A stretch of DNA of 64,000 nucleotides, taken from positions 1-64,000 of IMG/VR virus record IMGVR_UViG_3300030060_005952. One strand, written 5' to 3'. Every line of letters starts with the position of its first letter. Position 1 is the stretch's first letter. Of this stretch, positions 3,409 to 35,626 are shown piece by piece. A model generated the notes under the pieces. That model saw only the letters and a program-made list of their open reading frames with translations. It did not search any database and had not been told where the DNA came from. Source of the DNA: a virus. A program made the translations under genes and the position numbers.

Positions 3409-4550
3409 ATGTTTTTGAGTCTGCTTGGCTTTCTTTGTTGAAGCAAACCGATGAATATGACCGTGACTACGATTCAACTGATAGTCTGTATCCGGGTGCG
3501 CCCTTTGACAATGTATTCAGATATGGCAATCAATATTTTGACACATTAGAAGAACTAGAAAATTACATGGGTGGCCTAGATATAAAACCACAACCTGAGT
3601 ATGTTGCTGGTGGTCGTCAGATGAGTTTGAGAAACTACCCTACTGACGATGACGATGTTCGTTATACTCATTCTTTTGACCCTAAATATCTCGGAGAAAA
3701 AATGATTGAGGGATTATCACCCAGAGAGTTAGATAATTACGGGCTTGGCCATAGTTGGGAAATAGAACATGCTGGTGCTGGTCGTAAAGGTCTAGGTATT
3801 ACAAGATTCAAACCAATGACTACTATGTGGAAAGACTCAGAAAAAGCAAGTAAGATATTTTTTAGGAATAATTTTACTGATGACCCCATGACTTTTGACC
3901 ATGAAGGATTGGGTGAAGCTCTTAACCACGCTGCAGAAATAGCAGAATCCAACATAGATGGAAGTAAAATTGATGAGTCTATCATAAGAGCCCGTGACCT
4001 TTATGATACGATGACTGGGCATCAAACAACCGATTTAGGTACTGGTAGAAGAATAAACAGAGTGGATTTTGACCATGATGAAAATACAGAAGAAAAAAGA
4101 ATGGAGGCGGCGGCCGACCTTCTTGATTTCTATAGGGATAATACCTCACCGGCAGCAGAGCATCTAAGAGAAGAATACGACGAGAGCCATTTTTTGGATT
4201 TACTTGAAAGAATACTGAATGACTCTTGGCTAAACGACCCTAAAAACCATGTACCCGGCTTCTTCATTACCGATACTAACCCTTTTTCAGTAGATAGGAT
4301 TTCTTCAATGATAGACGGAACGAGAAACGTAGTTGGCATCAGAAGTAAATTACCAAGCGAACCAACGAAAGAAAGGGGTGCAGGGCAGAGCATAGACTTG
4401 ATACCTGAAAAATTCGTAACAGAACCCATACCACCCGAAGACCTGATTTTTTATCCAGAGACAGGTACTGATTTGGTAGAGAGAGGTAGAATTAAGCCTC
4501 GTTTTCAAGACACAAGACCTCTTTCCGAGCGCACTGAATTTCCCATATAG
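3405..4550 (+). CDS. AW-LK leader protein with PIP-like motif and possible ADP-ribosyltransferase-like fold
   Basis: MNVFESAWLSLLKQ; QMSLRNY; YTHS...EGLSP...KIFF...EKFVTEPIPPEDL pattern resembles small ART-fold domains (by eye). Confidence 0.6.
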   Translation: MNVFESAWLSLLKQTDEYDRDYDSTDSLYPGAPFDNVFRYGNQYFDTLEELENYMGGLDIKPQPEYVAGGRQMSLRNYPTDDDDVRYTHSFDPKYLGEKMIEGLSPRELDNYGLGHSWEIEHAGAGRKGLGITRFKPMTTMWKDSEKASKIFFRNNFTDDPMTFDHEGLGEALNHAAEIAESNIDGSKIDESIIRARDLYDTMTGHQTTDLGTGRRINRVDFDHDENTEEKRMEAAADLLDFYRDNTSPAAEHLREEYDESHFLDLLERILNDSWLNDPKNHVPGFFITDTNPFSVDRISSMIDGTRNVVGIRSKLPSEPTKERGAGQSIDLIPEKFVTEPIPPEDLIFYPETGTDLVERGRIKPRFQDTRPLSERTEFPI

Positions 4551-4580
4551 TGCCTAAAAACAGCATTACGAAGCGTTCAA

Positions 4581-4588
4581 ATATAAAT
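4581..4588 (+). promoter_or_regulatory. TATA box (ATATAAAT) for 4609 gene
   Basis: TATAAA about 27 nt upstream of ATG 4609. Confidence 0.5.
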
Positions 4589-4608
4589 GGTATATCCTAT
4601 TATCCCCG

Positions 4609-4797
4609 ATGAAGGCTACTCCGACCCCCTTTGAACGGGCTTGGTTGCTAATAAAGGGACAACCTCTTGGCATTAAATTCACTAACGAGGAAGAGCAGTT
4701 TATCAACACCGCACTTCATGAGGCAATGACTAGTAAGGACGCTTACAGAAAGAGCGAAGCAAAGGAGCTTTTCTTAGAGTTTCTCAACCACAACTAG
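4609..4797 (+). CDS. AW-LK leader family small protein
   Basis: MKATPTPFERAWLLIKG. Confidence 0.75.
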   Translation: MKATPTPFERAWLLIKGQPLGIKFTNEEEQFINTALHEAMTSKDAYRKSEAKELFLEFLNHN

Positions 4798-5195
4798 TAG
4801 TCAAAACCAGTTGTTGTACTACCACTAGTATCAGCAACCATCTGTTGTCTGTTTTGAGTTTCAGCCATTCTTTGTCTTTCCATAGCCTCTTTTTGGGCTC
4901 TTTCCTGTTGTTTTTCTTTTAATTTCTTCATTGCAGGGTCCATGGCTCCCCTTACTGTCTGGACTTTATCGAGATGAGGAGCTACTTTCTGTGCGACTTG
5001 TCCTGCTGCACTACCCATACGACCTGCCATTGAAGCTAATCTAGCGCCAACTCCCAGTCCAGTCGTAGTAGCACCTGCTGCACCCGCACCTGCTGCACCC
5101 GCACCTGCTGCACCTGCACCTGCACCTGCACCTGCACCTGTACCTGCACCTGCTACTACAGGCGCTACTAGTGGAGCTACTACTGGTGCTGGCAT
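4794..5195 (-). CDS. Ala/Gly-repeat protein, lone antisense gene; probable start ATG 5195
   Basis: MPAPVVAPLVAPVVAGAGTGAGAG... followed by a coiled-coil; TTTTTATG about 25 nt upstream on the minus strand. Confidence 0.6.
   Translation of the reverse strand: MPAPVVAPLVAPVVAGAGTGAGAGAGAGAAGAGAAGAGAAGATTTGLGVGARLASMAGRMGSAAGQVAQKVAPHLDKVQTVRGAMDPAMKKLKEKQQERAQKEAMERQRMAETQNRQQMVADTSGSTTTGFDY
5070..5155. repeat. TGCACC hexamer / GCACCTGCTGCACCC microsatellite
   Basis: tandem TGCACC units encoding GA/GAA repeats. Confidence 0.85.
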
Positions 5196-5247
5196 GATAG
5201 TCGGATAGAGCGGAACATAAAAACAGTATCGCAATGTACCACATTTC

Positions 5248-5457
5248 ATGGGTGACCGTAAGGTATTGGTCTACAAAGGTCGCTCCTACATTCAAGATAG
5301 GCCAAAAAGACTAGCACAAGCCAAAGTGCAGAGGCTTGCTAGAAAAACCAAAAATCGCAAAACTAGAGCTAGGTATGCCCGAAATCTATCTCGTGGCAAC
5401 ATTAGACCAAAGATGCGTAGACAAACCGGACTTGTCAGAGTGGTGAGAAGAAAATGA
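5248..5457 (+). CDS. small Arg/Lys-rich protein, possibly DNA-condensing
   Basis: 69 aa, very basic; N-terminal KVLVYKG; stop overlaps next ATG. Confidence 0.7.
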   Translation: MGDRKVLVYKGRSYIQDRPKRLAQAKVQRLARKTKNRKTRARYARNLSRGNIRPKMRRQTGLVRVVRRK

Positions 5458-6442: not shown

Positions 6443-7356
6443 ACCCTTTTGAGCAAGCTTGGATGCTTTTGCTGAAGGAGATGCTACCTCCTAATTACAC
6501 ACAAATTGGTAACGAAGAGAAGGATTTGAATGCAGCAGAGAGAGCTTGGCAGATGCAATATGCAAAACCAAACCCTGTCACTGCTCCACAAGTAGACGTT
6601 TCTAGGCCCCCTGTTGCTAATTTAGGTGAGAACTTCTTTGGACCACATTCTCATGAAAGACTAACTGACAGAGATAGAGTGGTGGACGAGGGGGAACAAC
6701 AAGAAGTCAGAGATAGAATATCTATGGCAATGGGTCAGTTTTTGGATGAATATGGTCTTTACAAACCCGGAGCACCAAGAAATCTAGCAATTAGAACACA
6801 TCTTTTGAATGAGCACAGAAGACCAGATGAAACTTACACAAAGAGCAACGGTGATTCAATTGTCGCTATCGTAAGACCACATAGAAAAAATAACATGAAA
6901 CCTGAGCTAAACACAGTCATGCTACGCCGCTCGGAGATGCATCACGAGGCACCTCAACCATTCAAGGCTGCCGCTATGAGTGTCGATAAAGTAGTAAATG
7001 CACACGGCATGTCGAAGAAACAGATGAAGAGGCTGGCGGCCATGAGAAGACAAAATCGCGCCATCCGAACTGGGGAGCCAATGGACATCGCAATGCAGTT
7101 GCTCAAGGAGCGCAAGTCGCCAGAGGCTATGAGGCGTAAGTTGGAGTATGACAAGAGGTATGAAAAGACCCCTGAGAGAAGAAAGTACCAACGTGAATTA
7201 CACGCTGAAAGAAGAAAAAGAGGTATTTACGGCTCTGGCGACCACATGGATGTGAGTCACACACAAGGCGGTAAGTTGACTCTTGAGCCTGAGCATGCTA
7301 ATAGAGCTAGACATTTCAAGAATCGAGGTACTCTAAGGAGAGTGAAAGTAAGATGA
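6439..7356 (+). CDS. AW-LK leader protein with a second internal leader preceding an HNH-like C-terminal module
   Basis: MNPFEQAWMLLLKE; internal MDIAMQLLKE (ATG 7081); DHMDVSH...EHANRAR. Confidence 0.65.
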   Translation: MNPFEQAWMLLLKEMLPPNYTQIGNEEKDLNAAERAWQMQYAKPNPVTAPQVDVSRPPVANLGENFFGPHSHERLTDRDRVVDEGEQQEVRDRISMAMGQFLDEYGLYKPGAPRNLAIRTHLLNEHRRPDETYTKSNGDSIVAIVRPHRKNNMKPELNTVMLRRSEMHHEAPQPFKAAAMSVDKVVNAHGMSKKQMKRLAAMRRQNRAIRTGEPMDIAMQLLKERKSPEAMRRKLEYDKRYEKTPERRKYQRELHAERRKRGIYGSGDHMDVSHTQGGKLTLEPEHANRARHFKNRGTLRRVKVR

Positions 7357-8135
7357 GACAGACTGAACTCGGTGAGTTTCATGAGGGCTTTTCCAGTAGC
7401 AAGGGACCTGTTAGTGAGTATCATGGTACGGTAGATATGCCAGCGGTTATGGAAGAGGGAATCAGGGGAGGTCCAACCACAGGTAGGTCCAAACGCTATA
7501 TCCCTGAATCACTAAGAGGACAAGAAAAAATATCTTACACTTCACCTGATAGAGAGCTGGCACTCAGGTTTGCACAAGAAAGAGCCAAAAAGCTAGGCTT
7601 GCCTCAGAGCAACGTAGGCGTGGTTGGCGTGAGAGCAGGGGAACTTTCAGAACCAGTGAGACAAGCAGAGCCAGCAGGTGGTGTATTTGCTGGAACTGAT
7701 AGTAATGTCAGGGCTGGTGGAATACCCAGACAGAACCTCGTACCATTGACTTTGAAATCCAATATCTCTATCTCCGACCCACCGCTCGGCGTTAGTATGG
7801 AAGCTTTCACCGCAGCGTGGAATGTGTTGAAAGCGACCTTACCGATAAAGCCTGAAACAATGCAAGGTGCGACTGACCCTAGAAGATATCGTAATTACAA
7901 ACAGACGGGTGGTGTCGCTCGACGGGCTAGAGAAAGATTGATGGATGAAACGGCTTCAATGGATGCAGATGTGGATGATGAGCAATTAATGGGTAGAAAA
8001 AATCCCATCCTTGATATTTATGGTGATGACACAGTCTACCCTCCTGACGCCGTACCCATTGAGCCTCTACCGGAGGATATGCGAGAGTACCGCATCCGGA
8101 GAGACGGAGATGCGTATTTCTATGGACAAGAGTGA
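7353..8135 (+). CDS. PIP-box plus ART-like domain fused in frame to a second AW-LK leader module (ATG 7797)
   Basis: MRQTELGEF; EYHGT...SYTSPDRELALRFA...GGIP; internal MEAFTAAWNVLKA. Confidence 0.65.
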   Translation: MRQTELGEFHEGFSSSKGPVSEYHGTVDMPAVMEEGIRGGPTTGRSKRYIPESLRGQEKISYTSPDRELALRFAQERAKKLGLPQSNVGVVGVRAGELSEPVRQAEPAGGVFAGTDSNVRAGGIPRQNLVPLTLKSNISISDPPLGVSMEAFTAAWNVLKATLPIKPETMQGATDPRRYRNYKQTGGVARRARERLMDETASMDADVDDEQLMGRKNPILDIYGDDTVYPPDAVPIEPLPEDMREYRIRRDGDAYFYGQE

Positions 8136-8155
8136 TAATGTATAGGTGATTACTG

Positions 8156-14134: not shown

Positions 14135-15438
14135 CGGAGGGGATGCAGGGACGTTCCTCCGATACGAGGATGTATAATCCACGTAGTGAATCCTCCCATA
14201 TGTATCGTAATAATCACGAAGAAGATACATACAGTCCTGATGATGCAAAGCATCGTGATGAGCGTTATGAGGAAAAGCAAAAGAAGAAGGAAAAAGAAAA
14301 GAAAGAACGTGATAAAGTAAAGCATATTCGTATCAGACCCAAAGACCTACCACCTTCAGAAGATGAAAATGACGATGATGAAGATGAAGGTATGTACAAA
14401 CCTGACAAAAGAAATGCTGAGAGAGAAATCTCAGCTATCACTGGACCACCCGGCAACGGTGGTTTTCTCACGAGTCTTGCTACACAAGCAAAAGGACCCG
14501 GCGCTGCTGGTGGAAATATGTTCGCCATGAGTGAGGTTATGGATGATGCTTGGTCTAGTCTTTTAAAATCAAAAGAAAGTAAGAAAGCAAAGAAAGATAA
14601 GAAAGAGAGAAGTAAGAAATTCCGACCTTCTACGGGACAATTCAAGACTCCACCCGGTGGTTCAATGGGACCGAAAGGAGCCACTGAAAGAAGAAGAAAA
14701 AGTGTTAGAAGGGCTGTTTCAAGAGGTAAGTTGACCGGAATGAAAGATGCTCCAAAAGCAGTTGAGATGGAACACAGGGGTGTGTCGGTCAAACAACCAT
14801 TATCAAAAGACCCTGCTAGATACAGAGATTATCAAGGTACAATGGAAGCCAGAAAAAGACTAGGTGGAGTAAGACAAGACACATCTTCACAAAGAAGATT
14901 CGGGCAAAGAAAATACCAAGCAGGACCAACTGGTGGCGGTAGACTTCTTGGTGGCGTTGGTGTTAGAAAACCCAGAATACACTCTCCTAGAATGTCACAT
15001 AGAGTTTCGATGCCTCATTTGAACAGACCTAAAACTCCTTCTGCTGGATTATCAATGGGTAAAATGGGTCTAAGACAAAGCGTAATGGGACCTCCACCAG
15101 TAACGGCGATAGCTCCACCAGCACCAATGCCAAGTCCAAATCAACAGTTTCAAATGAGTTCTGATTACGTGCCTTACAGCGATATTCTCAAAGCAAAAAT
15201 TACAGCATCGGACATAGCCGAGATGAGAAGAATGCTGTTTGAAATTAGAAGAGAACTCAAAGACAAGGACAAAAAGAGCAAATCGATGGGAACCAAAGAC
15301 ACTGCTGGAGCTGGGGATGACAAACCCAAAAGCAAGAATGGTGGATTCAAACAGACCTCACGACCACAAGGGGGAACCGAGGACGCCACTGATATGACGG
15401 GTATCCTTCCTGAAAATCGTGGGGGAGCCACCGCATGA
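14131..15438 (+). CDS. basic, low-complexity putative internal head protein with internal AW-LK motif
   Basis: MDDAWSSLLKS, DILKA; K/R-rich. Confidence 0.7.
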   Translation: MTEGMQGRSSDTRMYNPRSESSHMYRNNHEEDTYSPDDAKHRDERYEEKQKKKEKEKKERDKVKHIRIRPKDLPPSEDENDDDEDEGMYKPDKRNAEREISAITGPPGNGGFLTSLATQAKGPGAAGGNMFAMSEVMDDAWSSLLKSKESKKAKKDKKERSKKFRPSTGQFKTPPGGSMGPKGATERRRKSVRRAVSRGKLTGMKDAPKAVEMEHRGVSVKQPLSKDPARYRDYQGTMEARKRLGGVRQDTSSQRRFGQRKYQAGPTGGGRLLGGVGVRKPRIHSPRMSHRVSMPHLNRPKTPSAGLSMGKMGLRQSVMGPPPVTAIAPPAPMPSPNQQFQMSSDYVPYSDILKAKITASDIAEMRRMLFEIRRELKDKDKKSKSMGTKDTAGAGDDKPKSKNGGFKQTSRPQGGTEDATDMTGILPENRGGATA

Positions 15439-17801
15439 GCAAGGTTAGAGTTCTACCTAAAACCCTGAAAAAGAGCGATGGAAATTTCATCTATTGGGAT
15501 GGAAAACAAAGAGCCCAAAGACATCCACCGAAGGAGGTCAAGAATACTGACCCGAATGGAATAGACCACGCTCCTCCTTTTGCACATACTGGCAGTCATG
15601 GTGAAAATGAAACAGGAGAACTTGGCGTTGGAAAGATAATACCCGGAAAATATGAAACCGGACCACATGGTGAATTGGTGTACAAAGACGAGCTTGGTGG
15701 TCTACACTTTCATGGTATAGATGGCGTTATACACCATTTGGGAAATTTACTCAAGAGTGAGGGTATTGATGATAGTGCAGCAAAGTTAGTCCAACAAGCC
15801 ATAGAAGAAACAAACAATGACCCCCTACATAGGGACAATCCAGATAATCACCTTCCCGATGTAACAGATAAAGCTTGGCGAAGACTAGTCATGAGTGACT
15901 ACCAAGGACCAAAATTTGAAGAAGAGGGAAGAGCCAGACAGCACTATGTTACCATTGATGGTCAGAAACAACTGATAACTGGTTACAGAAATTTTCATGG
16001 TCATGATTCACCTCACGGGATGTTTCTAGATTCCTTGGCTAATCCTGTGCAAGCCGCTCTCGCTAGAATCCTAAAAGAAAAGCATAATCTTGACCCACCA
16101 CAAGGTAGAAATGATTTTCTTACCAGACCGCATATAAGAAGCGCTTACCTAAGTTATGCACTAGGTCCAAACTCTACCCCTGAAAATCCACAATATTACA
16201 GAGCTAATACTTCAGCTAGAACAGGACAAGTGTATGGTACTAACTATCAGACGAGGAACGCTTTCAAAAATGATATACTTTCTAGATTGAGTGAAGCCGG
16301 AATAGATACTGATATTGCTTTTCCTGATACATCAGCATATGGCATAGCACACATGCTTCCCGATAGATTCTTTAGAAGAGTTAGAAAAGGCACACGAAAA
16401 TATAGCGAGGGTGCAGAACCAACAGGGGCAGTAAGAGTTGCTAATCAAGAAATCATGGATGCGATAGGACATAGCAGTGTAGGTGGAGAAGCTATTGCTA
16501 GGGGAAGAGTGAAGCAGACTCTGAATCCATTTGAACACCCTGCTCTTGCCAACACTATGTATGGGGGAAGACCACTTTCACAAATCCTAGCTTCTGACGA
16601 ACAAAGAAAAAAGTTTCTTTATGGATTACTTTCCTATGATGCTTTTATGAAAATATTTGGCAAAACCTCACCAGATTCACCTGCTGGTAGACTTGCTAGT
16701 GCCTTCACTGAGTTGCACACGGGACTCCAAGACACTGCTGAGTTACCAGCAGGTGCTTTGGATTTAGGTGGCATTCAAAATCACGTCGGTGCTGTGCAAG
16801 GGAGGTACGGAACTGGTAGGCATCTCAGAGCTAAGGACATGCGTGCTTTGGCAATTCACAGTGGACATGAGGAAGCGATGGGCAACAATGCTGGAAACTT
16901 CAAACTGAGAACTACAGAATTAACTCCTGAGCTAGAAGTGAAGTACAACATAAAGCATCAAGAGCCATATGAAGGTGAAGTGGAGGAAATCAGAGGTGTC
17001 ATGGAAGCGATATCAGAGTTCCTAGCTGATGCGAAAGGACATGAGACGAGACTAACTCATCCAATAGAGCTACCAACACAACCTGCGGTCAGCACTAGTT
17101 TTCAAATGCCAACTAATCAAGGCATGAGTTTGGCAGACCACGTAAGATACTCTCCCCTTGTTGAAAACACAATGGCCGAAGGGACCACACGAGCGATGGG
17201 TGGCTCAACACAAGATTTGCCACCTGCACCAGTCGTACCTCAAGTAACCCAAATGGCCACACCACCTAGTAACGTAGCACGAACACAACCGCCAACTTCT
17301 GCAAATTTGGCAACTCCTAGTCTATCGCCTGAGCAAGTTACTGCTGCTAGAACAGGAGCGGCTAATCTTAGCGATGACCAATTAAGACAACTGATGAGAA
17401 CAGGTGGTGCTAGGTCTGGTGGTAGTACCACACCAATTGCTCAACCAGAGTTAGAGCGTTTTAGAGGCGCCTTCAGTGACCCATATCAGAGACTTATCAC
17501 AGAGTACATGAAAGGAGAGGGCTCGGTCGAAGAAGTGCAAGATAGGTTAATCAAGACCATGGAGAGACTTCAAATCAAGGATGCTAAGAATGATTCTACA
17601 ATAATCAAACATGTAAGTGAAAATAAACTTTCGATAGATTCTTTTCATGATGTTTCCACAATGGCCAAAAAGCTTGGCCTCGCCCCTCAAGATATTAGGT
17701 TGATAAACGAGAGCAAGGGTGATTGGATGAGGTTGAACAAGTCTTTCGGTTTCTCTGAGAGAGATATCAAGATAGTCAAGCTGTCTTTCAGGGGTGATTG
17801 A
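15435..17801 (+). CDS. 788-aa hypothetical putative head protein
   Basis: N-terminal KVRVLPKTLKKS; PIP-like QRLITEY near residue 685. Confidence 0.75.
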   Translation: MSKVRVLPKTLKKSDGNFIYWDGKQRAQRHPPKEVKNTDPNGIDHAPPFAHTGSHGENETGELGVGKIIPGKYETGPHGELVYKDELGGLHFHGIDGVIHHLGNLLKSEGIDDSAAKLVQQAIEETNNDPLHRDNPDNHLPDVTDKAWRRLVMSDYQGPKFEEEGRARQHYVTIDGQKQLITGYRNFHGHDSPHGMFLDSLANPVQAALARILKEKHNLDPPQGRNDFLTRPHIRSAYLSYALGPNSTPENPQYYRANTSARTGQVYGTNYQTRNAFKNDILSRLSEAGIDTDIAFPDTSAYGIAHMLPDRFFRRVRKGTRKYSEGAEPTGAVRVANQEIMDAIGHSSVGGEAIARGRVKQTLNPFEHPALANTMYGGRPLSQILASDEQRKKFLYGLLSYDAFMKIFGKTSPDSPAGRLASAFTELHTGLQDTAELPAGALDLGGIQNHVGAVQGRYGTGRHLRAKDMRALAIHSGHEEAMGNNAGNFKLRTTELTPELEVKYNIKHQEPYEGEVEEIRGVMEAISEFLADAKGHETRLTHPIELPTQPAVSTSFQMPTNQGMSLADHVRYSPLVENTMAEGTTRAMGGSTQDLPPAPVVPQVTQMATPPSNVARTQPPTSANLATPSLSPEQVTAARTGAANLSDDQLRQLMRTGGARSGGSTTPIAQPELERFRGAFSDPYQRLITEYMKGEGSVEEVQDRLIKTMERLQIKDAKNDSTIIKHVSENKLSIDSFHDVSTMAKKLGLAPQDIRLINESKGDWMRLNKSFGFSERDIKIVKLSFRGD

Positions 17802-24564: not shown

Positions 24565-27500
24565 GTGCAAGAGAGCGACTATGTCATTCATCTTCGCGCT
24601 AGGGATGATTTACTCAAGAGCATAATTTCTTGTGACGATTATACTGAAGAGGCTACTGCCTATATTAATAGCCTACGAAACATAGTGAATAAGGAAATGA
24701 TACTACAGAACAACCCTGTTGATGATTTCTGCTATGAAGCCAGTACGATGTTGTTGTACAAAAAAACCATCGGTGACCTCTCAGCAGAGCTAGCGTTCGG
24801 AGAGCGTGGTGATGAGGGGTATGACTACGACAAAAAAGGCAGAATAAGCAGAAGAACTGTTGGCCCCGCATTTAATAATCACAGACATATAAATGAGATA
24901 ATCGACAATGAGAATATCGAATTAGCCTCATCGCTCTTCCCAAGGGTAGTTCCCGGTGATAGCAATTACAAACATCATCATTTTCATGAATCGATACACC
25001 CACTACGCAAGAAGAACAGCTCTACTGGTAATTCTAGAATGGTTGAGAAACTCTTGGGTTATGTCAGAAAAGACGACGATGGAAACAGCGTTGCATCCTC
25101 GCATGCTGATGCGGAGAGGGCACATGAGACACATTACGATAATTTACGTAATCCGATAATTGTAGGTCAAATTAGAAAATCAAAAAGAGCTGATATGGAT
25201 GATGAGATTACCCATGGCTTTTTGGGTAGGTTAAACACCAACGACTCAAATAGAACCATTTCTGAGCAAGTGGGTACTTCTGGTGCTTTTCAAGAGGGTC
25301 TGTATGAGAGGGCTTTCACAAAGTGGTCAAGTCAAAATCAAAAGAAGATTGACGAGGAGAAATCCCAAGGCGCCTCTGATAAAGACATCAGGGAAATGCA
25401 CCTTGAGGAAGCAGCTAAATTATGGCAGGGTAGAGATTTTGAGGAAGAGGAAATAAAATATGATGATGATGAAATCTATAGCAAGCTTTTTGCCGAAAGA
25501 GCAGGGGAGAGACAAGAGGGCTCTCGCATAGCAGAGGGCGTTCAGACAGAGTTTCCCACTGAGAGGCAACACCCTCACAGACTGGGACTCCTTGGGTATG
25601 GCCTTGGTTTGGAATGGCTCAGTCCCATTGAGAGAACCAAAGTCATCGAGCATCTTAAGGATAACAAGGGGGACACAAGCGAGAAAATAAAGCTCGATGA
25701 TGGCACTGAAATACCACTTGGAAGACTAAGGAGAAACTTTCAGAAGAGAATGACGCCTTTGTATCTCCACAGCCAAATGCCCCATAACCGGGGACAGCCC
25801 AATCTAGCTAAACACTTGGAAAGCGATGAGCTAGATGGCACAGAGTACACTGGTAGTGAAACGGAGCCAATTCGTAGCCTACTGGCAAAAATAGACCATG
25901 GGGTGCATGGGACCATGTTCGGTTCCTTATTGAACCATTATAATGAGCTACTAGAATTACAGGGCGACCAAAAACTAACAAAAATTCCCATCTATGGCGA
26001 AAAACGCACTAAGAAAATACGAGAAAAGATAGACGAGCTAATAGAAAAAGGAGTGGACGAGAAGGAGGCTCTTAGAACAATTTTGAAGGTAGAGGATTAT
26101 GCTCCCGTTAGTAATTTCACCATACCCCAGTTGAAGAGGCATCTGAAGGAGCATCCCCTCTCTGAGCTTCTAACTGACGAGGGTAAAAAGCCCCTCGCTC
26201 ATGAGAACATGAAGGCAGATGACTACATCAACCAGTTAGAGGAGATGTACAGAGATGGAATGTCATTAGCTCGTGACAGCAAGGACATAGCTAATGCCAA
26301 TGCCGTGTTCGCCAAGAGTGCGGGCCCGGACATAAGGGATGTACCCGAAGAAATAAGAAATCACTTCATAGAGAAAAATGGGACTTTGAGAGGGCTATCT
26401 GATTACTGGGCGCATGACTTGCAGGTTGGTAGCAATCCCATAGAATCCACTACTTTCTTTGACATGCTGAACAGTATCGCACCGGGTCTGTTTGGTGAAT
26501 TTGAAGCGCATCACGAATATCCAGATTTTCAATTCTTCGTACCCAGACCAGATATGTCGGGTTTCTTGGGCGCCATGCACCACGTCGTCAGGGAGAGAGG
26601 CGAGAGCTTCAGTCCTGCCGAGATAATGAGCATGCATGACCAGAGCTTGGGTGCTAGTCATGTAAATTTAGGTGACAAAAAACCAAGAAATAGGGCCAAT
26701 GGTAGCGATACCGCTCATTCACTCACACCAAGAGCCACCACCTTCTGGTCAAGGAGCAGGAACCCAAAAGCCGAAATAACCAGAGATAGTGTTGGATTTT
26801 TAAAAACTAAAGGCGAAAAAAGAGCCATACATGAAACTCAGTATCACGAGTTCGGAACCAAGACAGGTAGCACTAAATCCGAGGCTCTGGATAGCAAGAA
26901 GGCGCATAACTCCTCCGAGATAATGCGTGAGTATCTAATGTCTGGTGCCCAATACAAGTTCGGGTCAATTGACCCTAACACTGGTAGGAGGAGGCTCGGC
27001 TCGCCTGTGATGAGAATACCAGTCAATGAGATGCTTGGAGGCAAACACGGTTTTCCTTTTGAGGACGATGAAGAGGGCGGATACTCGGCTTTTGAGAAAG
27101 CTCTTTTTGCTTTAAGTGGCTCTTTGGGCATGGATGACACAAAGAGAATAGCGGAGCTTCAAAGCGAGCTGGAGGAGATTGAGCTATCAGGCGAGGATGC
27201 CTCTCAAGAGCTGATAGATGAACTGAAGGGACGCATACACATGCAACAGGCTAATTTACGAGCTAAAATTTCGGGTTTTGACAAAACCAGATTACAAGAA
27301 AAGGAAAGAAGAGCCGAAGCTGAAGAAAGAGCTAGAATGGAAGTCGCCAAGAACATAACCATACCTGCTATGCTAGAGATAAATCCTAACTTGCTTGACC
27401 CTAATAATCCTGAGCAAACCGTGGCTGACCTATCCCAAGCCATGCATGATGCTGAGTTGATTATGAAGCACATGCCTCACGGCTTCCATGGTCAAAGTAT

Positions 27501-29808
27501 CAGGGACATCATGATTGGGGATGCTGTTGATGAGCAGACGATAGATGCCATGGTCGGTGGCGACATGTTCCGTCGAAAAGCCAATGTGCTTGAGAAAGAG
27601 GGCTTTCCGCTTAGTTTCCCAGAGAGCGGAAAAGTCGAAGATATGCATGTCACAGCGAGTTTGATAGGCATAGGATTAGATGACCCCATGTACTTCACTG
27701 ACCCCGGATACAGGGAGTACATGCGGGAACTCCTAGAGAGTCTGGAGGGCAAGCCCGCTCATTATGCGATGACTACCGCTCAACTTGCAGCACACGCTAA
27801 CGAGGACTTCCATCTCTTTGACGATGATGGGATGAAAGGGGACCCAATGAGAGCCCATAAATTGATGGAGGATGAGTTAACACGCTATAGGAGTCAAATC
27901 CGTGGTCTTAAACTTCCTGACAAACACAAAGGCGATTTTAATAACAATAATGAGCATTACAATTCGATAAATAACAATTACATGAAACTCAGCATGGCAC
28001 ACAAAGGCACCAGTGCTATACAACACGGTCTTTCTTTGAGTAGCTTACCCAAAGACATACATGGTAATGAGGATAAAGGCAAAGGTACAGAAAGACTTCG
28101 TTATGAGTGGGCTATGGCTAGAGCCAAGAGAAAGGCCAACAGTCTAGTTCTTTTCAATCCAGAGGCAAGGGTGGCGGCACCAACGCCTCCCCCTGCTATG
28201 CCTGAAGGACAGATGACACTGGACCAGTTTGGCGATACTGGTAGTAATTTGAAGCGCCCGATAAAAATAGGAGATGGCAAGATAGGTCCAGTCACTAACC
28301 CAAATTCGGATGCCATAATGGGGTCCCGTTACACAAGTGCAGGTGTTCAAATGCAAATGGGCACAGAACTACCTGCAGCCTCCGCTTCGCTTAATTTAGG
28401 CTACGATGGAAATATGGAGTATGGGACAAATACCAGCGCTGGCCCAGCGGTACCGCCAAGTGAGCCAGTAATAAAAGAATTGATGGAACACTTTCAAGAG
28501 GGTTCTTACAGTCAGATGGATGCTTATTTTCAAGCCAATGGTGTCAATGAGGCTATGTTACCAAGCACCACTTCCAACATGGAGAGGGTATCGGAAAGCA
28601 ACCCAATGTCAGGATTGCAGGTCCCACATGAGGTAGCTAAGTCCTTACCAAAGGAAATGCCACTAATAGAGCCCTATCACAAGATATTCGACATGGAGGA
28701 CCTGCAAGAGCTACGGGGTTTCACCGGGGAGTGGGTTGTCTCTGTAATGGAAGAGGGCACTAGAGTGAAAGTAACTAGGAAGTCGAATAGGATAGAGGTC
28801 AAGGATGACGACAATGAGGATGTTGGCACAAGCGATGGTATGAGAAGCTCCCTTAGAAAAATAGGGAAGAACAACTATGTCATGGACGCTGTGCTTAACA
28901 GCTCTGGTTTGCACATATTCGATATCATGCACTACGATGATACCGATGTTACTGATATGCCCACTAGGGAGAGGATAAAGTTACTACGTGGGCAGTTTGA
29001 CAGTAACGAGAATGTTTTCGTGCCCGGACCGTTCAATCTGAAAGTCACCGATGATGATGGTTTGAGCGATGCGATAAAATTTCTACAGAGGGAGAATAAG
29101 GACTCAAAGCTACTACTCAGGGATGCTAAGTCCACTTACATGAAGGGAGAAGAGAAGCATCCGAAGTGGATATTGATGACCAAATCCGATGATGACTACC
29201 ATGTGCCATTTGGCATGGAAATAGATGGAGAGGTCTTCATACTGCACTTTGACCATGACATACTCAAGTACGACATAGTGGAGGATAGCTTGGAAAACCC
29301 ACGTTCAGCTTTGGGTGGCCTCAAAGACCGGGACTATACGATGATACTAGCCAAGAGTCTGGAAAAATACTGGGAGCCCGCTTTCCAACAGATGCTCAAA
29401 GCGGAGAAGAGAAAAATAAAAGAAATCGTTGAAGAAGATGAAGACGATAAAGAAGAGGATGAGGGCATAAGCGAGGAGGATGCCAAGAGAATAGGCAGAC
29501 AGAGCGGGGGCGTCTTAAAACCAAATGAGGACCAGAATATTCTGCTAAAGCCGAGCACCATACAGACTTTGGAAAAAATAGAGAAAATACTTGACTCTTT
29601 GGAAAAAGGACATTTTCCAATGACAGCAGGTAAGGGTCTGGGTGTTGATGTAGGTAGCGACATAGACAGCCCTAGAGGACCCACTAAGTTGACTAATGAG
29701 GCAACTCTACCGGATTATGACATGAAGGAAAGACCAGAACAGGACCCTGAGAAGCCGGAGGACTATCCAAAAAGAAAGAAAATAGCCTCTCGGTCTAACG
29801 ATTCTTGA
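24565..29808 (+). CDS. 1747-aa putative internal head polyprotein with inactive ATP-dependent ligase-like domain
   Basis: DLLKS N-terminal site; GQMTLDQF; ligase motifs EWVVSVMEEGTR, VMDAVL, IFDIM, LLLRD, KWILM. Confidence 0.8.
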   Translation: MQESDYVIHLRARDDLLKSIISCDDYTEEATAYINSLRNIVNKEMILQNNPVDDFCYEASTMLLYKKTIGDLSAELAFGERGDEGYDYDKKGRISRRTVGPAFNNHRHINEIIDNENIELASSLFPRVVPGDSNYKHHHFHESIHPLRKKNSSTGNSRMVEKLLGYVRKDDDGNSVASSHADAERAHETHYDNLRNPIIVGQIRKSKRADMDDEITHGFLGRLNTNDSNRTISEQVGTSGAFQEGLYERAFTKWSSQNQKKIDEEKSQGASDKDIREMHLEEAAKLWQGRDFEEEEIKYDDDEIYSKLFAERAGERQEGSRIAEGVQTEFPTERQHPHRLGLLGYGLGLEWLSPIERTKVIEHLKDNKGDTSEKIKLDDGTEIPLGRLRRNFQKRMTPLYLHSQMPHNRGQPNLAKHLESDELDGTEYTGSETEPIRSLLAKIDHGVHGTMFGSLLNHYNELLELQGDQKLTKIPIYGEKRTKKIREKIDELIEKGVDEKEALRTILKVEDYAPVSNFTIPQLKRHLKEHPLSELLTDEGKKPLAHENMKADDYINQLEEMYRDGMSLARDSKDIANANAVFAKSAGPDIRDVPEEIRNHFIEKNGTLRGLSDYWAHDLQVGSNPIESTTFFDMLNSIAPGLFGEFEAHHEYPDFQFFVPRPDMSGFLGAMHHVVRERGESFSPAEIMSMHDQSLGASHVNLGDKKPRNRANGSDTAHSLTPRATTFWSRSRNPKAEITRDSVGFLKTKGEKRAIHETQYHEFGTKTGSTKSEALDSKKAHNSSEIMREYLMSGAQYKFGSIDPNTGRRRLGSPVMRIPVNEMLGGKHGFPFEDDEEGGYSAFEKALFALSGSLGMDDTKRIAELQSELEEIELSGEDASQELIDELKGRIHMQQANLRAKISGFDKTRLQEKERRAEAEERARMEVAKNITIPAMLEINPNLLDPNNPEQTVADLSQAMHDAELIMKHMPHGFHGQSIRDIMIGDAVDEQTIDAMVGGDMFRRKANVLEKEGFPLSFPESGKVEDMHVTASLIGIGLDDPMYFTDPGYREYMRELLESLEGKPAHYAMTTAQLAAHANEDFHLFDDDGMKGDPMRAHKLMEDELTRYRSQIRGLKLPDKHKGDFNNNNEHYNSINNNYMKLSMAHKGTSAIQHGLSLSSLPKDIHGNEDKGKGTERLRYEWAMARAKRKANSLVLFNPEARVAAPTPPPAMPEGQMTLDQFGDTGSNLKRPIKIGDGKIGPVTNPNSDAIMGSRYTSAGVQMQMGTELPAASASLNLGYDGNMEYGTNTSAGPAVPPSEPVIKELMEHFQEGSYSQMDAYFQANGVNEAMLPSTTSNMERVSESNPMSGLQVPHEVAKSLPKEMPLIEPYHKIFDMEDLQELRGFTGEWVVSVMEEGTRVKVTRKSNRIEVKDDDNEDVGTSDGMRSSLRKIGKNNYVMDAVLNSSGLHIFDIMHYDDTDVTDMPTRERIKLLRGQFDSNENVFVPGPFNLKVTDDDGLSDAIKFLQRENKDSKLLLRDAKSTYMKGEEKHPKWILMTKSDDDYHVPFGMEIDGEVFILHFDHDILKYDIVEDSLENPRSALGGLKDRDYTMILAKSLEKYWEPAFQQMLKAEKRKIKEIVEEDEDDKEEDEGISEEDAKRIGRQSGGVLKPNEDQNILLKPSTIQTLEKIEKILDSLEKGHFPMTAGKGLGVDVGSDIDSPRGPTKLTNEATLPDYDMKERPEQDPEKPEDYPKRKKIASRSNDS

Positions 29809-29848: not shown

Positions 29849-29855
29849 CATTGCT

Positions 29856-31280
29856 TTGCATTTCTTCATTAGTGTGCTGTCACAAGAGCGTCTCTATGGT
29901 GTTGATGAGTCCATTGGACTCCTTAAGGCTGGCAATGACCTCGTTGTTGCAGGATACGCTAGTGTGGAGCTAGTAGACAAACAAGGCGATTTAATTACAA
30001 AGGAGGCATTGAAGGACGGATTTCGGAAGTTTATGAGCGACCCGAAATATAGAAACGTCCAACTAGCGCACTCAAATATACAGGTAGGAGAAGTAGTACC
30101 ATCATATACAGATACAGAAGGGAGGTTATGGAAAAGCGAAGTTGACGATGTCGGCATGTTTGTAGTAATACAGCTCAGAGACGACATCGAAAAAGCACGA
30201 GAAGTTGCCGCCGAAATCAGGAAAGGCAAACTAAGGGGATTCAGCATCGGAGGACAAGCATTCAAGCGAGTCAGAAAGAGCGACCCAAGACACGGCGACT
30301 ATCAAGAAATCAGCAAGCTTGAGCTTCATGAAATCACAATTTGTGAAAAAGGGATAAATCCAGAAGCGACATTTAGAATTCTAAAGCAGGAGACTGACTC
30401 AGAAAACATAGAAAAAAATAAGGTGAAAAAAATGACAGATGAAAATGACATGCAGACACAGTTGGGTGACGTTCTTACTCGACTAGAAAGTAGGCTCGAC
30501 AGTATGGAGAAAGGAATGCCTCCACAACTGAAAGAAGCCATGAAAGACAAGAAGGATGACAAGGACGACAAAGACAAGGCCATGGCAGACAAGAAGAAAG
30601 ATGAGGACAAAGATGAGAAAATGTACGCAGATGAAGCTAAGAAATCTGATGACTACTCTGATGTTATCTCATCTGAGTACCTTGACTGGATGGAGAACAC
30701 TCTAAAGAGTGCCGGAGTCGATGTCGCAGGGGCTAGGGGTCACTTTGACGACCTAGCAAAAGCTAACCTTGGCTCTACTCCTGAAGAGTTTGACCTAGAT
30801 TACGGTCAGACCCCTAACAGAGAGTCCGAAGGTGGCAAGCCTTCAACAAACGCCATAGCAAGACTAGGTGGAAAAGGAGAGAAGAAAGAGGTCAAGAAAT
30901 CTGACTTCCTAACTCCAGACCTAGTATCAGAGGCAGATGTAGAAGCCGCATACGAAGTTTACAAGGCTGCTGCAATGGAGCAGGAGTTCAGGGGTTCACT
31001 AGAATCCCGATTTGCAGACAGATTTGCTAATGAGAGAGCAGAAGAAGTCGCAAAGGCAGAAGCCGCAGCATATGATGCACGCGGTCCTCTTGACGAGGTA
31101 ATGAAGGCTCTTGGTGCTCTTAATGAGAGAATCGACAACATAGGAACAGTTGAAGCTGGCACTCCAATCGCTAAGAGCGAGGCAGAGCCAGCAGTAGAAA
31201 TACCCTCCACAGTAGACATGCACAGAATGTCATGGGATGAGGTTCACGCCCTAGCAGATAAGGCATTTAGAGGAGAGTGA
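29856..31280 (+). CDS. HK97-type prohead protease fused to scaffold
   Basis: VAGYASVELVDKQGD, LAHSN (His), GFSIGG (Ser), LHEITICEKGINPEA; charged coiled-coil C-half. Confidence 0.93.
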   Translation: MHFFISVLSQERLYGVDESIGLLKAGNDLVVAGYASVELVDKQGDLITKEALKDGFRKFMSDPKYRNVQLAHSNIQVGEVVPSYTDTEGRLWKSEVDDVGMFVVIQLRDDIEKAREVAAEIRKGKLRGFSIGGQAFKRVRKSDPRHGDYQEISKLELHEITICEKGINPEATFRILKQETDSENIEKNKVKKMTDENDMQTQLGDVLTRLESRLDSMEKGMPPQLKEAMKDKKDDKDDKDKAMADKKKDEDKDEKMYADEAKKSDDYSDVISSEYLDWMENTLKSAGVDVAGARGHFDDLAKANLGSTPEEFDLDYGQTPNRESEGGKPSTNAIARLGGKGEKKEVKKSDFLTPDLVSEADVEAAYEVYKAAAMEQEFRGSLESRFADRFANERAEEVAKAEAAAYDARGPLDEVMKALGALNERIDNIGTVEAGTPIAKSEAEPAVEIPSTVDMHRMSWDEVHALADKAFRGE

Positions 31281-31285
31281 GATAT

Positions 31286-32416
31286 ATGGCAAGAAATTAC
31301 GTACGAACAATAACAGACATGGAGCGCTATTACTATGGCGCCGGAAACGCAATGGGTTACTCCTACTCCGGTAGTGAGCTACTCAAGGCTGACAGCCCTA
31401 TGCTGTCCACGACTGCTGGTACATACCAAGCAATCTACGGGCGCAAGGTCTGGTCGCAACTCAACCAAGAGTTCAACGCATTCAGCATCCTACCCAAGAA
31501 GCCTTGGGACAGGTCAGGATGGAGAGTTATCACAGGCAAGCCAAACGGCGGTGCCCTACACGGCGGAGTTGCAGAAAACGCAACACTGCCAGACACTGTG
31601 AAGCCTACCTTCCAGCACGTAGCTGCAAAACCAAAGACGGTCGCACACACATTCGACATGTCCGAGACAGCTATCTTCCTAGCAGACAGAGACGATGGAT
31701 TGGGAGATATCCGCTCAGTCTTAAAGGAAGAAATGGGCAAGCACCACGCTGAGATGGTCAATAAGATGCTACTAACAGACGTTACAACTGCAGCAGCTAA
31801 CAACTTTGAGTCGCTAGACAGGGTTACCACTGGAAACACATCAATGACATCTGGCACTCACTACGACGCTGGAGATGAAGACATCTACTCCATCGACAGA
31901 AGCGCCAACACATGGGCCTTCGCAGAAGATGAGGCTAACAGCTCCAGCACAAACAGGACACTGTCCCTAGACCACTTGGACACTTTGTTCCAACAAATCT
32001 GGGAGCGCGGTGGAAACCCCAAGGTCATCCTAACAGGATACGACACTCTGATGAGACTACAGCAACTGCTACAGTCCCAGCAGAGGTTCATGGAAGAGAA
32101 GAGAGTTACCCCAACCTACAACGGTGTGAAGGGTGTCCCCGGTGTAGAGGCAGGGTTCATCGTGGCAACCTACAACGGAGTACCAATCATTCCAACCAAG
32201 GACATGCCAAAGGACAGCTTGAGCAGGATGTACTTCCTAGACACAGACTATGTGCACTTTAGCACAGCTATTCCTACGCAATACTTTGAGAGCGGAATTG
32301 AGACTGGTGACCCATTCGCCATCAACAGGCTAGGACAGGAAGGACTGTACCGAACCATGGGCGAGATATGGACCACTTTCTTTGGAGCACACGGGAGCAT
32401 TCGTGACCTAAAGTGA
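31286..32416 (+). CDS. mcp: major capsid protein (HK97 fold)
   Basis: position after protease; IYGRKVWSQLN, YNGVPII, MYFLDTD motifs; resembles halovirus/magrovirus MCP. Confidence 0.92.
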   Translation: MARNYVRTITDMERYYYGAGNAMGYSYSGSELLKADSPMLSTTAGTYQAIYGRKVWSQLNQEFNAFSILPKKPWDRSGWRVITGKPNGGALHGGVAENATLPDTVKPTFQHVAAKPKTVAHTFDMSETAIFLADRDDGLGDIRSVLKEEMGKHHAEMVNKMLLTDVTTAAANNFESLDRVTTGNTSMTSGTHYDAGDEDIYSIDRSANTWAFAEDEANSSSTNRTLSLDHLDTLFQQIWERGGNPKVILTGYDTLMRLQQLLQSQQRFMEEKRVTPTYNGVKGVPGVEAGFIVATYNGVPIIPTKDMPKDSLSRMYFLDTDYVHFSTAIPTQYFESGIETGDPFAINRLGQEGLYRTMGEIWTTFFGAHGSIRDLK

Positions 32417-32451
32417 GGTTGCAGAGGAGATAATAAAGAGGTGAAAAAGAT

Positions 32452-32880: not shown

Positions 32881-32881
32881 G

Positions 32882-33319: not shown

Positions 33320-33325
33320 TGAAAA

Positions 33326-33607
33326 ATGGCATTTGAGAGTACAATAGACACAAGACCACACGTAATGGGTAACCTAATGATGGTTACTGGGACCTTCACA
33401 AACGGCGGTAGCGATGCAGGTGGAAGCATAGACCTTTCTGGTCTACTAGCTGACATAGTAGCTTGTAACGCAGTTGCAGGAAGTAGCACCGCTGGTACAG
33501 GGGCTGGAGTCGATGGAGTGTTCGCACTCATTAACGGCACCAGTCTAGTCATTCAGAATGTGAATGGACAAGACGGTACATGGTTTGCTATGGGACACCG
33601 CAGTTAA
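33326..33607 (+). CDS. small virion structural protein
   Basis: G/T-rich beta composition; GGAGTG RBS. Confidence 0.7.
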   Translation: MAFESTIDTRPHVMGNLMMVTGTFTNGGSDAGGSIDLSGLLADIVACNAVAGSSTAGTGAGVDGVFALINGTSLVIQNVNGQDGTWFAMGHRS

Positions 33608-33620
33608 GGCGGTGACCTAA

Positions 33621-33815
33621 ATGGCTAATCTAACACCGAAGTACAAAGTCGTGGGACCCTTCTCACCGAAGGAGTTCAGTGACACGTCTACGCTGACAAC
33701 GACCATTGCTACGGCAGTGGGCACGTTGAGTGATGCGTCGAGCACGACTAGTCTAGTTGCCTCGGACCCTTTCATGGTCTTGGGTAATGTTTACATTCTG
33801 GTAACATACGTTTGA
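33621..33815 (+). CDS. small hypothetical structural protein
   Basis: GGTGA RBS, 64 aa. Confidence 0.65.
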   Translation: MANLTPKYKVVGPFSPKEFSDTSTLTTTIATAVGTLSDASSTTSLVASDPFMVLGNVYILVTYV

Positions 33816-33830
33816 TGGTGAGGGGTATGA

Positions 33831-34115
33831 ATGGGTTTCGATTTGCAGACTCTCGATATTGACGACATCGAAAGGGCTCAAAAGCAGAACATTCGTTCAG
33901 ATACTCATTATCAGGCTAATGTAGTGGTTGATGAAAAGAATCCCCTGAAAGGGGCGATTAGCAAGCAAAGAGCAAATGCCAAGAAAGCCGCCGATGTACT
34001 CAATATAGGCTCAGGCACTCGATGTACTCACTGTGGTCTTCTTCACTTTATGTGGAGGGAAACCTGTGGCTCCTGTAGAAAACCCATGAACTATAACATG
34101 GGGGTCAAAGAATGA
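33831..34115 (+). CDS. Zn-ribbon protein
   Basis: CTHCG...CGSC. Confidence 0.7.
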   Translation: MGFDLQTLDIDDIERAQKQNIRSDTHYQANVVVDEKNPLKGAISKQRANAKKAADVLNIGSGTRCTHCGLLHFMWRETCGSCRKPMNYNMGVKE

Positions 34116-35626
34116 CATTTCAGTATTCTTGGGACTTTCTCAAAGCCAAGAAAAAGAAGAAGAAATCAAAAACTGGTACGAAATACGTTAGACTGCAAGG
34201 CGGTGGTCGTGGTGGAGCAAAACTTCAATCATTAAGCAAGTATATCACTGATGTGGCTAAGAACAAATATCTACGGGAAGAAGCTCCAAATTTGGGTCCT
34301 GAAATTTTCAAAAAGCCCACAGAAGTACCACCACTCAAGGATGGACTTGATAGGTCCAAACCCAAAAATCAAATAATGATTGATAGACATTCACAAGCTA
34401 CCAATGAATACGAAAGAAAAATGAAAAACTATCGACATTTCTGGGACAAAGTAAATGAAATTAAAAGTGAATTAAACAGTTATTATTATAAAAATGGTCA
34501 TGATGCATTCATGAGGAAATATAAGGATTATGCAAAGCCAGCTTCTGAAGTAGGAAAACTAACTGGTGCAGAGTCAAGAGCTGCTAAAACTGGTAGAATG
34601 GATGCTTTGGATAATCAATTGACTTCAGAGCAAATGGAAGCTGAGAAACCAGTAGACCCTATTGAATATTTGAAAAACAGATTGGCTTCTAAGACGCCTG
34701 AGAGTGAAAGTGATGTCAATTCTTTGATGACGGGTTTGTTGAGTCAAATGGGCCCCGATGCTTTATCCGACTCTGAGCAAAAAGAATTAAGAAATGTTTT
34801 AACACAAAAGTATAACATACAACCAGAATCTATGGCTGATAAACTAAAGCGTGAGTTGAACGTGCAGCGTAGACAACCAGAATCCAGAACTTCCAAAGAG
34901 GAAATGATGGCCGATTTGGATAAATTGCCTGAAGACATAGACTTTCAAACAGGCTCAAAAGCCCTCCTAGAAGGTTTTCAACCACAAGGAATGCAGGACA
35001 TTAACAAAAAGGCTCACTCTTTACTAAGTCTTATGAATCCCGAAGAAAGAACTGACGATTCTTGGGGTAAGATAAGAAATGCTCTTGCACAAAAATATGG
35101 CTTCGATGTCCCCGAAGCATCTCCAGCGGCTAATATAGCAGCTGCTAATCTAGCGAGAAATCCAATTCTACCAAAACCATCAGAGGAAAAGCCACCAGTG
35201 ATGCCACCACAAGGTCAAATGACACTAGACCAATTTGGGAAACCACCCACGAGAAAACCACCAGTGAGGGTTTCCAGACCTGTTCAAGAGAAAGTAAAGG
35301 AGCCCGCACAATTAGCACAAGAACAATCTGACAGACGTTTCGATGAGAGACAGGCAAAGACAGAACAATTCTTTGCACCTGAACCAACACCTGCACCGAG
35401 CGATGAACTTACTGATGAGCAAAGGGCAAAAATAGCACAAGCTTACCCTGATGTGAAACCATTACAACCAGACATGCCTGACATATTTGATGCAGGTGGT
35501 AACCTTTCCCAGACAATGCCTGAGCCCAGTCCTTCATCTCAAGGAGCTGGTTCATCTGAAGTAATAGGTAATTTATTCGACCAGATGATGGATAACTTTA
35601 GACGAGAACAAGGAGCTGGTCAATAA
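34112..35626 (+). CDS. AW-LK-type leader protein with PIP box, inserted in the neck region
   Basis: MTFQYSWDFLKA; GQMTLDQF; more AT-rich than its neighbours. Confidence 0.75.
   Translation: MTFQYSWDFLKAKKKKKKSKTGTKYVRLQGGGRGGAKLQSLSKYITDVAKNKYLREEAPNLGPEIFKKPTEVPPLKDGLDRSKPKNQIMIDRHSQATNEYERKMKNYRHFWDKVNEIKSELNSYYYKNGHDAFMRKYKDYAKPASEVGKLTGAESRAAKTGRMDALDNQLTSEQMEAEKPVDPIEYLKNRLASKTPESESDVNSLMTGLLSQMGPDALSDSEQKELRNVLTQKYNIQPESMADKLKRELNVQRRQPESRTSKEEMMADLDKLPEDIDFQTGSKALLEGFQPQGMQDINKKAHSLLSLMNPEERTDDSWGKIRNALAQKYGFDVPEASPAANIAAANLARNPILPKPSEEKPPVMPPQGQMTLDQFGKPPTRKPPVRVSRPVQEKVKEPAQLAQEQSDRRFDERQAKTEQFFAPEPTPAPSDELTDEQRAKIAQAYPDVKPLQPDMPDIFDAGGNLSQTMPEPSPSSQGAGSSEVIGNLFDQMMDNFRREQGAGQ

Follow-up and report, generated by a model that had tools for sequence, protein, structure and literature searches.

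The window analysed here comprises 64 kb of DNA from the IMG/VR virus record IMGVR_UViG_3300030060_005952 and corresponds to the first two thirds of this 99,596-base record, whose completeness is estimated at 94%. It holds the structural arm of a magrovirus, one of the tailed viruses of Marine Group II archaea, and the element under study is a short peptide, reminiscent of the PCNA-interacting protein (PIP) box, which recurs in otherwise unrelated proteins encoded on its plus strand. According to our analysis of the sequences, these peptides are best read as one real, conserved and recurrent short linear motif under selection. The sites considered in the window are the following, where ORF stands for open reading frame and the word tagged refers to proteins opening with an N-terminal element, M..F..AW..LK, which is treated further below.

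3618-3638, plus strand: QMSLRNY, at residue 72 of the tagged ORF 3405-4550
7359-7379, plus strand: QTELGEF, residues 3-9, at the extreme N-terminus of ORF 7353-8135
17442-17462, plus strand: QPELERF, a second PIP-like peptide of the 788-residue (788-aa) protein, 8 residues before QRLITEY
17487-17507, plus strand: QRLITEY, at residue 685 of the 788-aa protein, ORF 15435-17801
18508-18534, plus strand: TPTLDKFGF, in the 251-aa low-complexity protein, ORF 17794-18549, six residues from its C-terminus
21023-21043, plus strand: QHRLQFY, a pattern match inside the HNH region of the HNH endonuclease, not counted as an instance
28207-28233, plus strand: GQMTLDQFG, at residue 1215 of the 1747-aa ORF 24565-29808, in a variable Pro-rich linker
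35213-35239, plus strand: GQMTLDQFG, at residue 368 of the tagged 504-aa ORF 34112-35626, in a Pro-rich linker

Each peptide named in the original prediction, which had interpreted them as PIP boxes on proteins delivered with the virion, was found at the position given there. The setting claimed for most of them, Pro-rich or disordered linkers, was likewise recovered: the flanks at 28210, 35216 and 18520 are rich in Pro, Gly and Gln and, residues 678-696 of the 788-aa protein, as modelled by AlphaFold2, have predicted local distance difference test (pLDDT) values below 50 and lie between a disordered linker (residues 577-642) and a C-terminal helical domain. The identity of GQMTLDQFG in two unrelated proteins also holds, as it is the sole 9-mer common to different proteins of the window, a shared 9-mer arose in 0 of 100 shuffles, and a BLASTP comparison of the otherwise unrelated 1747-aa and 504-aa proteins returned a single 28-residue match around the motif (E = 2e-4). 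Since the two copies use different synonymous codons at five of the nine motif positions, the identity is kept at the peptide level and does not reflect a recent copy of the DNA.

Taken by itself, the loose pattern Qxx[LIM]xx[FYW] shows no enrichment among the window's ORFs (10 seen versus 8.2 +/- 2.8 in within-protein shuffles; p = 0.30), and inside the range covered by the original prediction it occurs 8 times versus 4.8 expected (p = 0.11). One of its matches, QHRLQFY, is invariant in all HNH homologues and falls within residues 236-342, which match the HNH family; it is probably not a docking peptide. At the level of the group, 80 related loci gathered via the 1747-aa family yielded a non-redundant set of 313 plus-strand proteins (127,416 residues). 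Here the strict pattern Q.[TS][LIM]..[FY] was observed 19 times, compared with 5.8 +/- 2.5 in 200 shuffles (maximum 14) and 0 for the reversed pattern, and the loose pattern Q..[LIM]..[FY] 93 times, compared with 44 +/- 6 in shuffles and 24 for the reversed pattern; six proteins carry the loose motif in their last 10 residues against 0.45 expected. These counts, to which QHRLQFY of the folded HNH domain contributes, are not independent events, as diverged homologues remain in the set; despite this, the direction of the enrichment is clear.

Conservation was then read family by family. In the 504-aa family, 12 close homologues keep the motif unchanged apart from the position following F, where G, V or A stands (and, in related IMG/VR contigs, E as well). 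Such close homologues (83-89% identity when aligned over their full length) are uninformative, the entire surrounding linker being invariant. Apart from the family's own cluster, a profile search of 1.84 billion representatives yielded just two proteins, the distant homologue P0014 and a repeat protein, and for this reason conservation was read from positional homologues in the 80 loci. P0014 has KQPTLDDFG at the same place with diverged flanks, the positional homologues have QTTLTDFG, QTTLDAFT, QMTLDAFT or ATTLDDFM, and in two clades shorter tagged positional homologues carry the motif at their extreme C-terminus, in the form of QTSLQDFGFN or QMSLDEF. Distant homologues of the 504-aa protein thus retain Q-x-T-L-x-x-F amid diverging flanks.

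In the 788-aa family, nearly all of the 22 aligned sequences, which reach down to about 25% identity, have (DP[YQ])-Q-x-x-[LI]-[TF]-[DE]-[YF] at the site of QRLITEY, where one member (L110) reads QSTLGSF. Several clades add GQMTL[D/N/G][D/E]F or GQTSLTDF in the upstream Pro-rich linker, and at the QPELERF site several clades have Q-x-x-[IM]-x-[RQ]-F whereas others are without the Q. As for the rest of this protein, an N-terminal domain of about 560 residues is modelled confidently, and Foldseek of the model against the Protein Data Bank (PDB) gave nothing at E <= 0.001. A VIA-align search, which barely probed this large N-terminal domain, gave weak matches of residues 736-788 to small helical or helix-turn-helix domains that are below the reliable level (best Z 5.2, root mean square deviation 2.0, 53 aligned residues), and the weak likeness of the last 50 or so residues to helix-turn-helix domains extends to the N-terminus of a small terminase (Z 3-5). 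Look-alikes in the ESM Atlas scored at most 0.77 and were uninformative.

The 251-aa family shows the most extensive turnover. TPTLDKF of the window is without the Q of PIP position 1, and the close relative L064 has APTLDEFGF in place of TPTLDKFGF. Other clades carry, at shifting positions and often at the very C-terminus, QTTLGEF, QSRLTDF, QTSMADFG, QESMADY, QTDMGMF, QSLLDNYG, QTTLGQYG, QRILDEYG or the terminal QQNLLGFGA and QQRLDSY. What this turnover preserves is exactly Q, L/M three residues on and an aromatic residue three further, namely, PIP positions 1, 4, and 7. No recognisable domain was found in either the 504-aa or the 251-aa protein.

Of the two remaining ORFs, ORF 3405 keeps Q, L and Y/F in 14 homologues (76-94% identity), with variation at positions 3 (S/K/F) and 5 (R/Y); all its homologues are close ones from the protein collection, and none was found in five related genomes or in the IMG/VR scan. 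For ORF 7353, QTELGEF is kept in a full-length homologue from G001 (68% identity over 202 aligned residues, 83% over residues 1-156), and QTELGEY in a homologue from G002 (55-56% identity) in which the next six residues diverge.

In the 1747-aa protein, the motif lies about 230 residues before a conserved ligase-like C-terminal domain, and clades other than that of the window carry Q..L..Y elsewhere, for instance QEDLDAY at the C-terminus in L105. The C-terminal region gave weak matches to the DNA ligase adenylation domain (Pfam E 0.0019; ligase 3 in PDB, E 0.054), and no second ligase-like gene was found among the scanned ORFs of the replication arm. Its last 400 or so residues (from about 1350 to 1747; 28582-29805) are by far the best conserved part, with 34-75% conservation per 50-residue bin, mostly 48-75%, compared with 11-35% in all but one of the upstream bins.

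Taken together, the instances follow the consensus [G/K/R]-Q-[M/T]-[T/S]-L-x-[D/E/Q]-[F/Y], after which a small residue usually comes. Measured against background frequency, as the original prediction had proposed, the motif holds: Q, L/I/M and the aromatic residue are kept in homologues and the strict form exceeds expectation. Being short, disordered or terminal, with few fixed positions, gained and lost by clade and common to unrelated proteins, it behaves as docking motifs do. We consider as its carriers in the window the 788-aa, 251-aa, 1747-aa and tagged 504-aa proteins and, probably, ORFs 3405 and 7353.

The peptide is also found beyond the structural arm. When IMG/VR was scanned for the exact heptapeptide QMTLDQF, it was detected in the linker of another clade's 788-aa homologue (L055), in a small tagged protein encoded between neck genes (L010, L011), close to its C-terminus, and, as the tail EEQMTLDQFPSEEE, at the C-terminal end of a homologue sharing 27% identity with a 239-aa replication-arm protein of this genome (genome 89501-90220). 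Furthermore, a protein of about 100 residues, whose gene lies between those of the primase and the nuclease, keeps Q-x-T-L-D throughout the four genomes compared, as QITLDAF and QMTLDDY in two of them and as QQTLDGGGF in this genome. The peptide therefore does not mark virion or injected proteins alone. For the same reason, it does not behave as a capsid-targeting peptide, which would occur only on proteins of the capsid interior. In IMG/VR contigs without detected similarity to this virus (L013, L026, L028, L035, L051, L052), small proteins of 136-147 residues end in QMTLDQFF, a canonical C-terminal PIP-like box with two aromatic residues; one of them has a weak match to an N6 DNA methylase and adjoins genes for an Eco57I-type methylase and a helicase.

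In both the 504-aa and the 251-aa family, the Q motif is preceded by a second motif, (S)NL..NP[IV][LM]P, which lies, where the two occur in the 504-aa family, 10-25 residues upstream. In the window it is present at two sites.

18223-18249, plus strand: NLRENPILP, in the 251-aa protein
35147-35173, plus strand: NLARNPILP, in the 504-aa protein, 13 residues before the Q motif

The pattern NP[IVL][LMIV]P occurs 6 times versus 0.63 expected in the non-redundant set, all six in these two families, and besides the window the second motif was located in L065, L069, L073, L121, L072 and L103. As a pair, the two motifs resemble a bipartite docking module. The N-terminal element M..F..AW..LK opens at least eight otherwise unrelated proteins of the window, with starts at 1731, 2021, 3097, 3405, 5454, 6023, 6439 and 34112, and is also found on distant 504-aa homologues and on the small L011 protein; we regard F..AW..LK as a candidate loading or processing tag.

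The plus strand of the window encodes a tailed-virus morphogenetic module, with the gene of the 251-aa protein directly upstream of that of the large terminase. The main features are as follows.

18554-20029, plus strand: large terminase
20126-21280, plus strand: HNH protein
21262-23040, plus strand: portal
24565-29808, plus strand: 1747-aa protein with the ligase-like C-terminal domain, between portal and protease
29856-31280, plus strand: prohead protease-scaffold
31277-32416, plus strand: major capsid protein

Neck and tail genes complete the module, and its tail region contains a single ORF of 5549 residues (window 42981-59630). The minus strand, in the rest of the record, encodes a thermosome subunit, a family B DNA polymerase (PolB), an RFC-like AAA+ ATPase, a primase, a PD-(D/E)XK nuclease and a C5 methylase. 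This gene set, including the thermosome, corresponds to that of group A magroviruses, which have been assigned to Marine Group II archaea (PMC5434244). A thermosome subunit sharing 88% identity with that of the virus was found on a 21.8-kb contig (L144; NZMJ01000138.1) from a metagenome-assembled genome labelled Maricaulis sp.; this is probably a magrovirus or Marine Group II contig misbinned into a bacterial genome.

The virus also possesses its own sliding clamp. A 259-aa gene adjoining those of PolB and RFC (genome 80115-80894, minus strand) is modelled as a two-domain clamp subunit with a mean pLDDT of 77, and the best Foldseek matches of the model are archaeal PCNAs (E about 1e-11, TM scores of 0.6-0.7). 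By sequence, the protein has a weak PHROG match to a processivity factor, the Pfam family PCNA_N gave no match in the whole genome, and a sequence search of the PDB with the 259-aa protein was empty; its identity was therefore settled by the fold, and the model indicates a very divergent clamp of the PCNA type. All magroviruses have been reported to encode a clamp and a clamp loader (PMC5434244).

What, then, is the partner of the peptide? In its favour as a PIP box, Q at position 1, L/I/M at position 4 and the aromatic residue at position 7 are present in the distant 504-aa homologues, in nearly all of the 22 sequences of the 788-aa family and in the shifting 251-aa instances, and the peptide is placed in flexible linkers or termini, as seen from the Pro-rich flanks, the low pLDDT, the six proteins with a C-terminal instance and the N-terminal instance of ORF 7353. 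The PIP consensus consists of Qxx, a small hydrophobic residue, xx and two aromatic residues, usually at termini (PMC3504372). On this evidence, we regard a PCNA-type sliding clamp as the most likely partner, although we hold this to be an evenly balanced call. Its three key residues (Q, L/I/M and the aromatic one) would occupy the PIP pocket of the clamp and tether late proteins to DNA-loaded clamps. Docking would take place either following injection or at a late stage in the infected cell, such as during maturation or packaging of replicated DNA, in a manner comparable to the T4 clamp. Because both replication-arm and late proteins are among the carriers, a hub of DNA replication explains them better than a capsid hub, and a clamp as the hub would also account for the ligase-like domain, with its weak matches, on one of them.

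Several observations weigh against a clamp. Position 8 nearly always holds G, P, T, V, N, D, A or E in place of the second aromatic residue, and this weakens the case for a PIP-like binding mode: archaeal PIP boxes without that residue exist, as in A. fulgidus RNase HII and in Haloferax polymerases (PMC3504372), yet what is exceptional there is the norm here. The instance in the 1747-aa protein is restricted to the window's close clade: it is found only in homologues of about 90% identity or more and is absent, with the linker different or deleted, from the 10 homologues listed at 29-40% identity (residues 1000-1400). No PIP-like peptide is present in the viral PolB, RFC or other large replication proteins, and these proteins have conserved ends of another kind: across four genomes, PolB (genome 77815-80199) ends in K[V/M]PK[K/S][Y/H]W and a 460-aa replication protein (genome 82293-83675) in [S/A/G/E]QF[E/D/M]. 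The NL..NP[IV]LP companion is left unexplained by a PIP box bound to a clamp and hints at a bipartite site on another partner, and every carrier in this window lies in the structural arm, which fits an assembly partner too. A complex of the viral clamp with residues 345-395 of the 504-aa protein, predicted from a 4-row alignment and without controls, scored 0.00 against a mark of 0.32 and counts neither for nor against binding. The PIP-box reading of the original prediction is thus borne out as regards the conserved positions 1, 4, and 7 in linkers and termini of unrelated families, in a virus that encodes a clamp with the PCNA fold, and not as regards the second aromatic residue and the 1747-aa instance.

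The first alternative is a hub of assembly or maturation other than a clamp, such as the portal, the capsid interior, the protease-scaffold or the viral thermosome, which would recruit the carriers into or onto the procapsid. It would account for the position of the window's carriers upstream of the terminase gene, between portal and protease and after the capsid gene, for the C-terminal instances, which resemble cargo-loading peptides, for the missing second aromatic residue and for the pairing with NP[IV]LP, as a bipartite site is not known for PCNA. Nevertheless, it does not explain why replication-arm proteins of other clades carry the same peptide or why the conserved residues are exactly the key positions of a PIP box, and a second loading signal would be redundant given that F..AW..LK already marks many putative cargo proteins, the 504-aa protein included; we therefore deem an assembly hub unlikely, while taking it as a serious contender. 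As a separate candidate role connected with assembly, a cleavage site for the prohead protease was rejected, since neither the capsid protein nor the protease-scaffold nor the portal has the motif and replication-arm proteins do carry it.

If the partner is a PCNA-type clamp, it could be that of the host or that of the virus. The virus's own clamp, as a sub-case of the preferred explanation, might serve late roles such as nick sealing, initiation of packaging or late transcription, by analogy with T4: the virus encodes the clamp and RFC next to PolB, the carriers lie on either side of the terminase gene and have among their domains a ligase-like one and a C-terminal one that is weakly helix-turn-helix-like at a Z of 5.2, below the reliable level, and magrovirus PolB clusters with T4-like polymerases (PMC7544198). 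PolB and the other replisome proteins, however, are without the peptide although the main client would be expected to carry it, and we judge this sub-case rather improbable. No C-terminal PIP box was found to be conserved on viral replication proteins in four genomes, and no PIP-like micro-ORF was found behind PolB in this genome. Since the replisome proteins have other conserved tails, the divergent viral clamp is suggested to read something else, and we lean toward host PCNA as the partner; the conserved tails of PolB and of the 460-aa protein may be docking tails read by the viral clamp. Among the tails of this genome that were considered as PIP boxes, the terminal KQFDLAVF and TMTIDTFDILEEEE were rejected as they are not retained in relatives. 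Two small replication-arm proteins (genome 91933-92397 and 89501-90220) have acidic ends, TMTIDTFDILEEEE and DGDEEE, for which relatives retain EEE; these ends recall the acidic C-terminal tails of single-strand DNA-binding proteins.

The fullest form of docking on host PCNA would be one in which packaged proteins, some of them loaded by means of the tag, expose a PIP-like peptide with a single aromatic residue, dock on host PCNA after ejection and either block host replication or position viral enzymes before viral gene expression. Packaging and injection of the carriers are suggested by gene position and order and by the F..AW..LK tag on some of them, and we consider this scenario as a whole quite improbable. 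A virion-delivered system for hijacking a clamp is, to our knowledge, so far not known in archaeal viruses.

Finally, that the peptides have no common partner, being products of chance or composition or parts of folded domains, with the shared 9-mer as a relic of recombination between two genes, is extremely improbable, since the chance level of the loose pattern in the window, the folded setting of QHRLQFY and the clade-specific 1747-aa instance are outweighed by a 9-mer that no shuffle reproduced and whose copies differ in synonymous codons, by conservation in distant homologues despite diverged flanks, and by a three-fold enrichment with a reversed-pattern control of 0 and a further enrichment at C-termini.

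Magroviruses rank among the most abundant viruses of archaea in surface ocean waters, and we know of no cultured representative of either these viruses or their hosts; the wiring among their proteins must come from sequence. In the literature that we searched, no paper on such motifs in magroviruses was found. One peptide on at least five unrelated families of late proteins and on two replication-arm families points to a single hub organising many viral functions. If the hub is host PCNA, this would amount to a broad viral take-over of the archaeal sliding clamp via mimicry of a short motif; if it is something else, the motif can still be used as a bait peptide to find it.

Among known systems, the closest likeness is to the PIP clients of archaeal and eukaryotic PCNA, such as FEN1, the large subunit of RFC, PolB and PolD, RNase HII, DNA ligase and p21. 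The PIP box of p21, one of the strong eukaryotic ones, reads QTSMTDFY and that of human FEN1 QGRLDDFF. Common to these clients and the magrovirus peptide are the three key residues (Q1, L/I/M4 and F/Y7), the frequent T/S before L and D/E before the aromatic residue, the location in disordered tails, linkers or extreme termini and the gain and loss by clade, and the clients likewise include a ligase, as one magrovirus carrier has a ligase-like domain. They differ in that the second aromatic residue is almost always replaced in the magrovirus peptide by G, P, T, V or N, and in that its carriers are mostly late proteins of the structural arm instead of replication and repair enzymes. In T4, gp33 and gp55 use clamp-binding tails outside replication. 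The tails of gp43, gp33 and gp55 on the gp45 clamp of T4 and RB69 thus offer a parallel for a virus with its own clamp and loader and a short hydrophobic docking peptide outside the replisome, but they have no leading Q and are strictly C-terminal, whereas in the magrovirus it is the polymerase itself that is without the peptide. An archaeal virus in contact with the clamp of its host is exemplified by SIRV2, whose Gp1 binds PCNA3 of Sulfolobus (Gardner et al. 2014, cited in PMC5537682), the magrovirus contact being a candidate one; SIRV2 is a rod-shaped crenarchaeal virus without a clamp of its own, and the account given in that citing source describes no shared multi-protein motif. Finally, the T4 capsid targeting sequence and the cargo-loading peptide of encapsulins are likewise short, found on unrelated proteins of the capsid module and sometimes C-terminal; unlike them, the magrovirus motif is carried by replication-arm proteins too, coexists with a distinct N-terminal tag and follows the PIP pattern.

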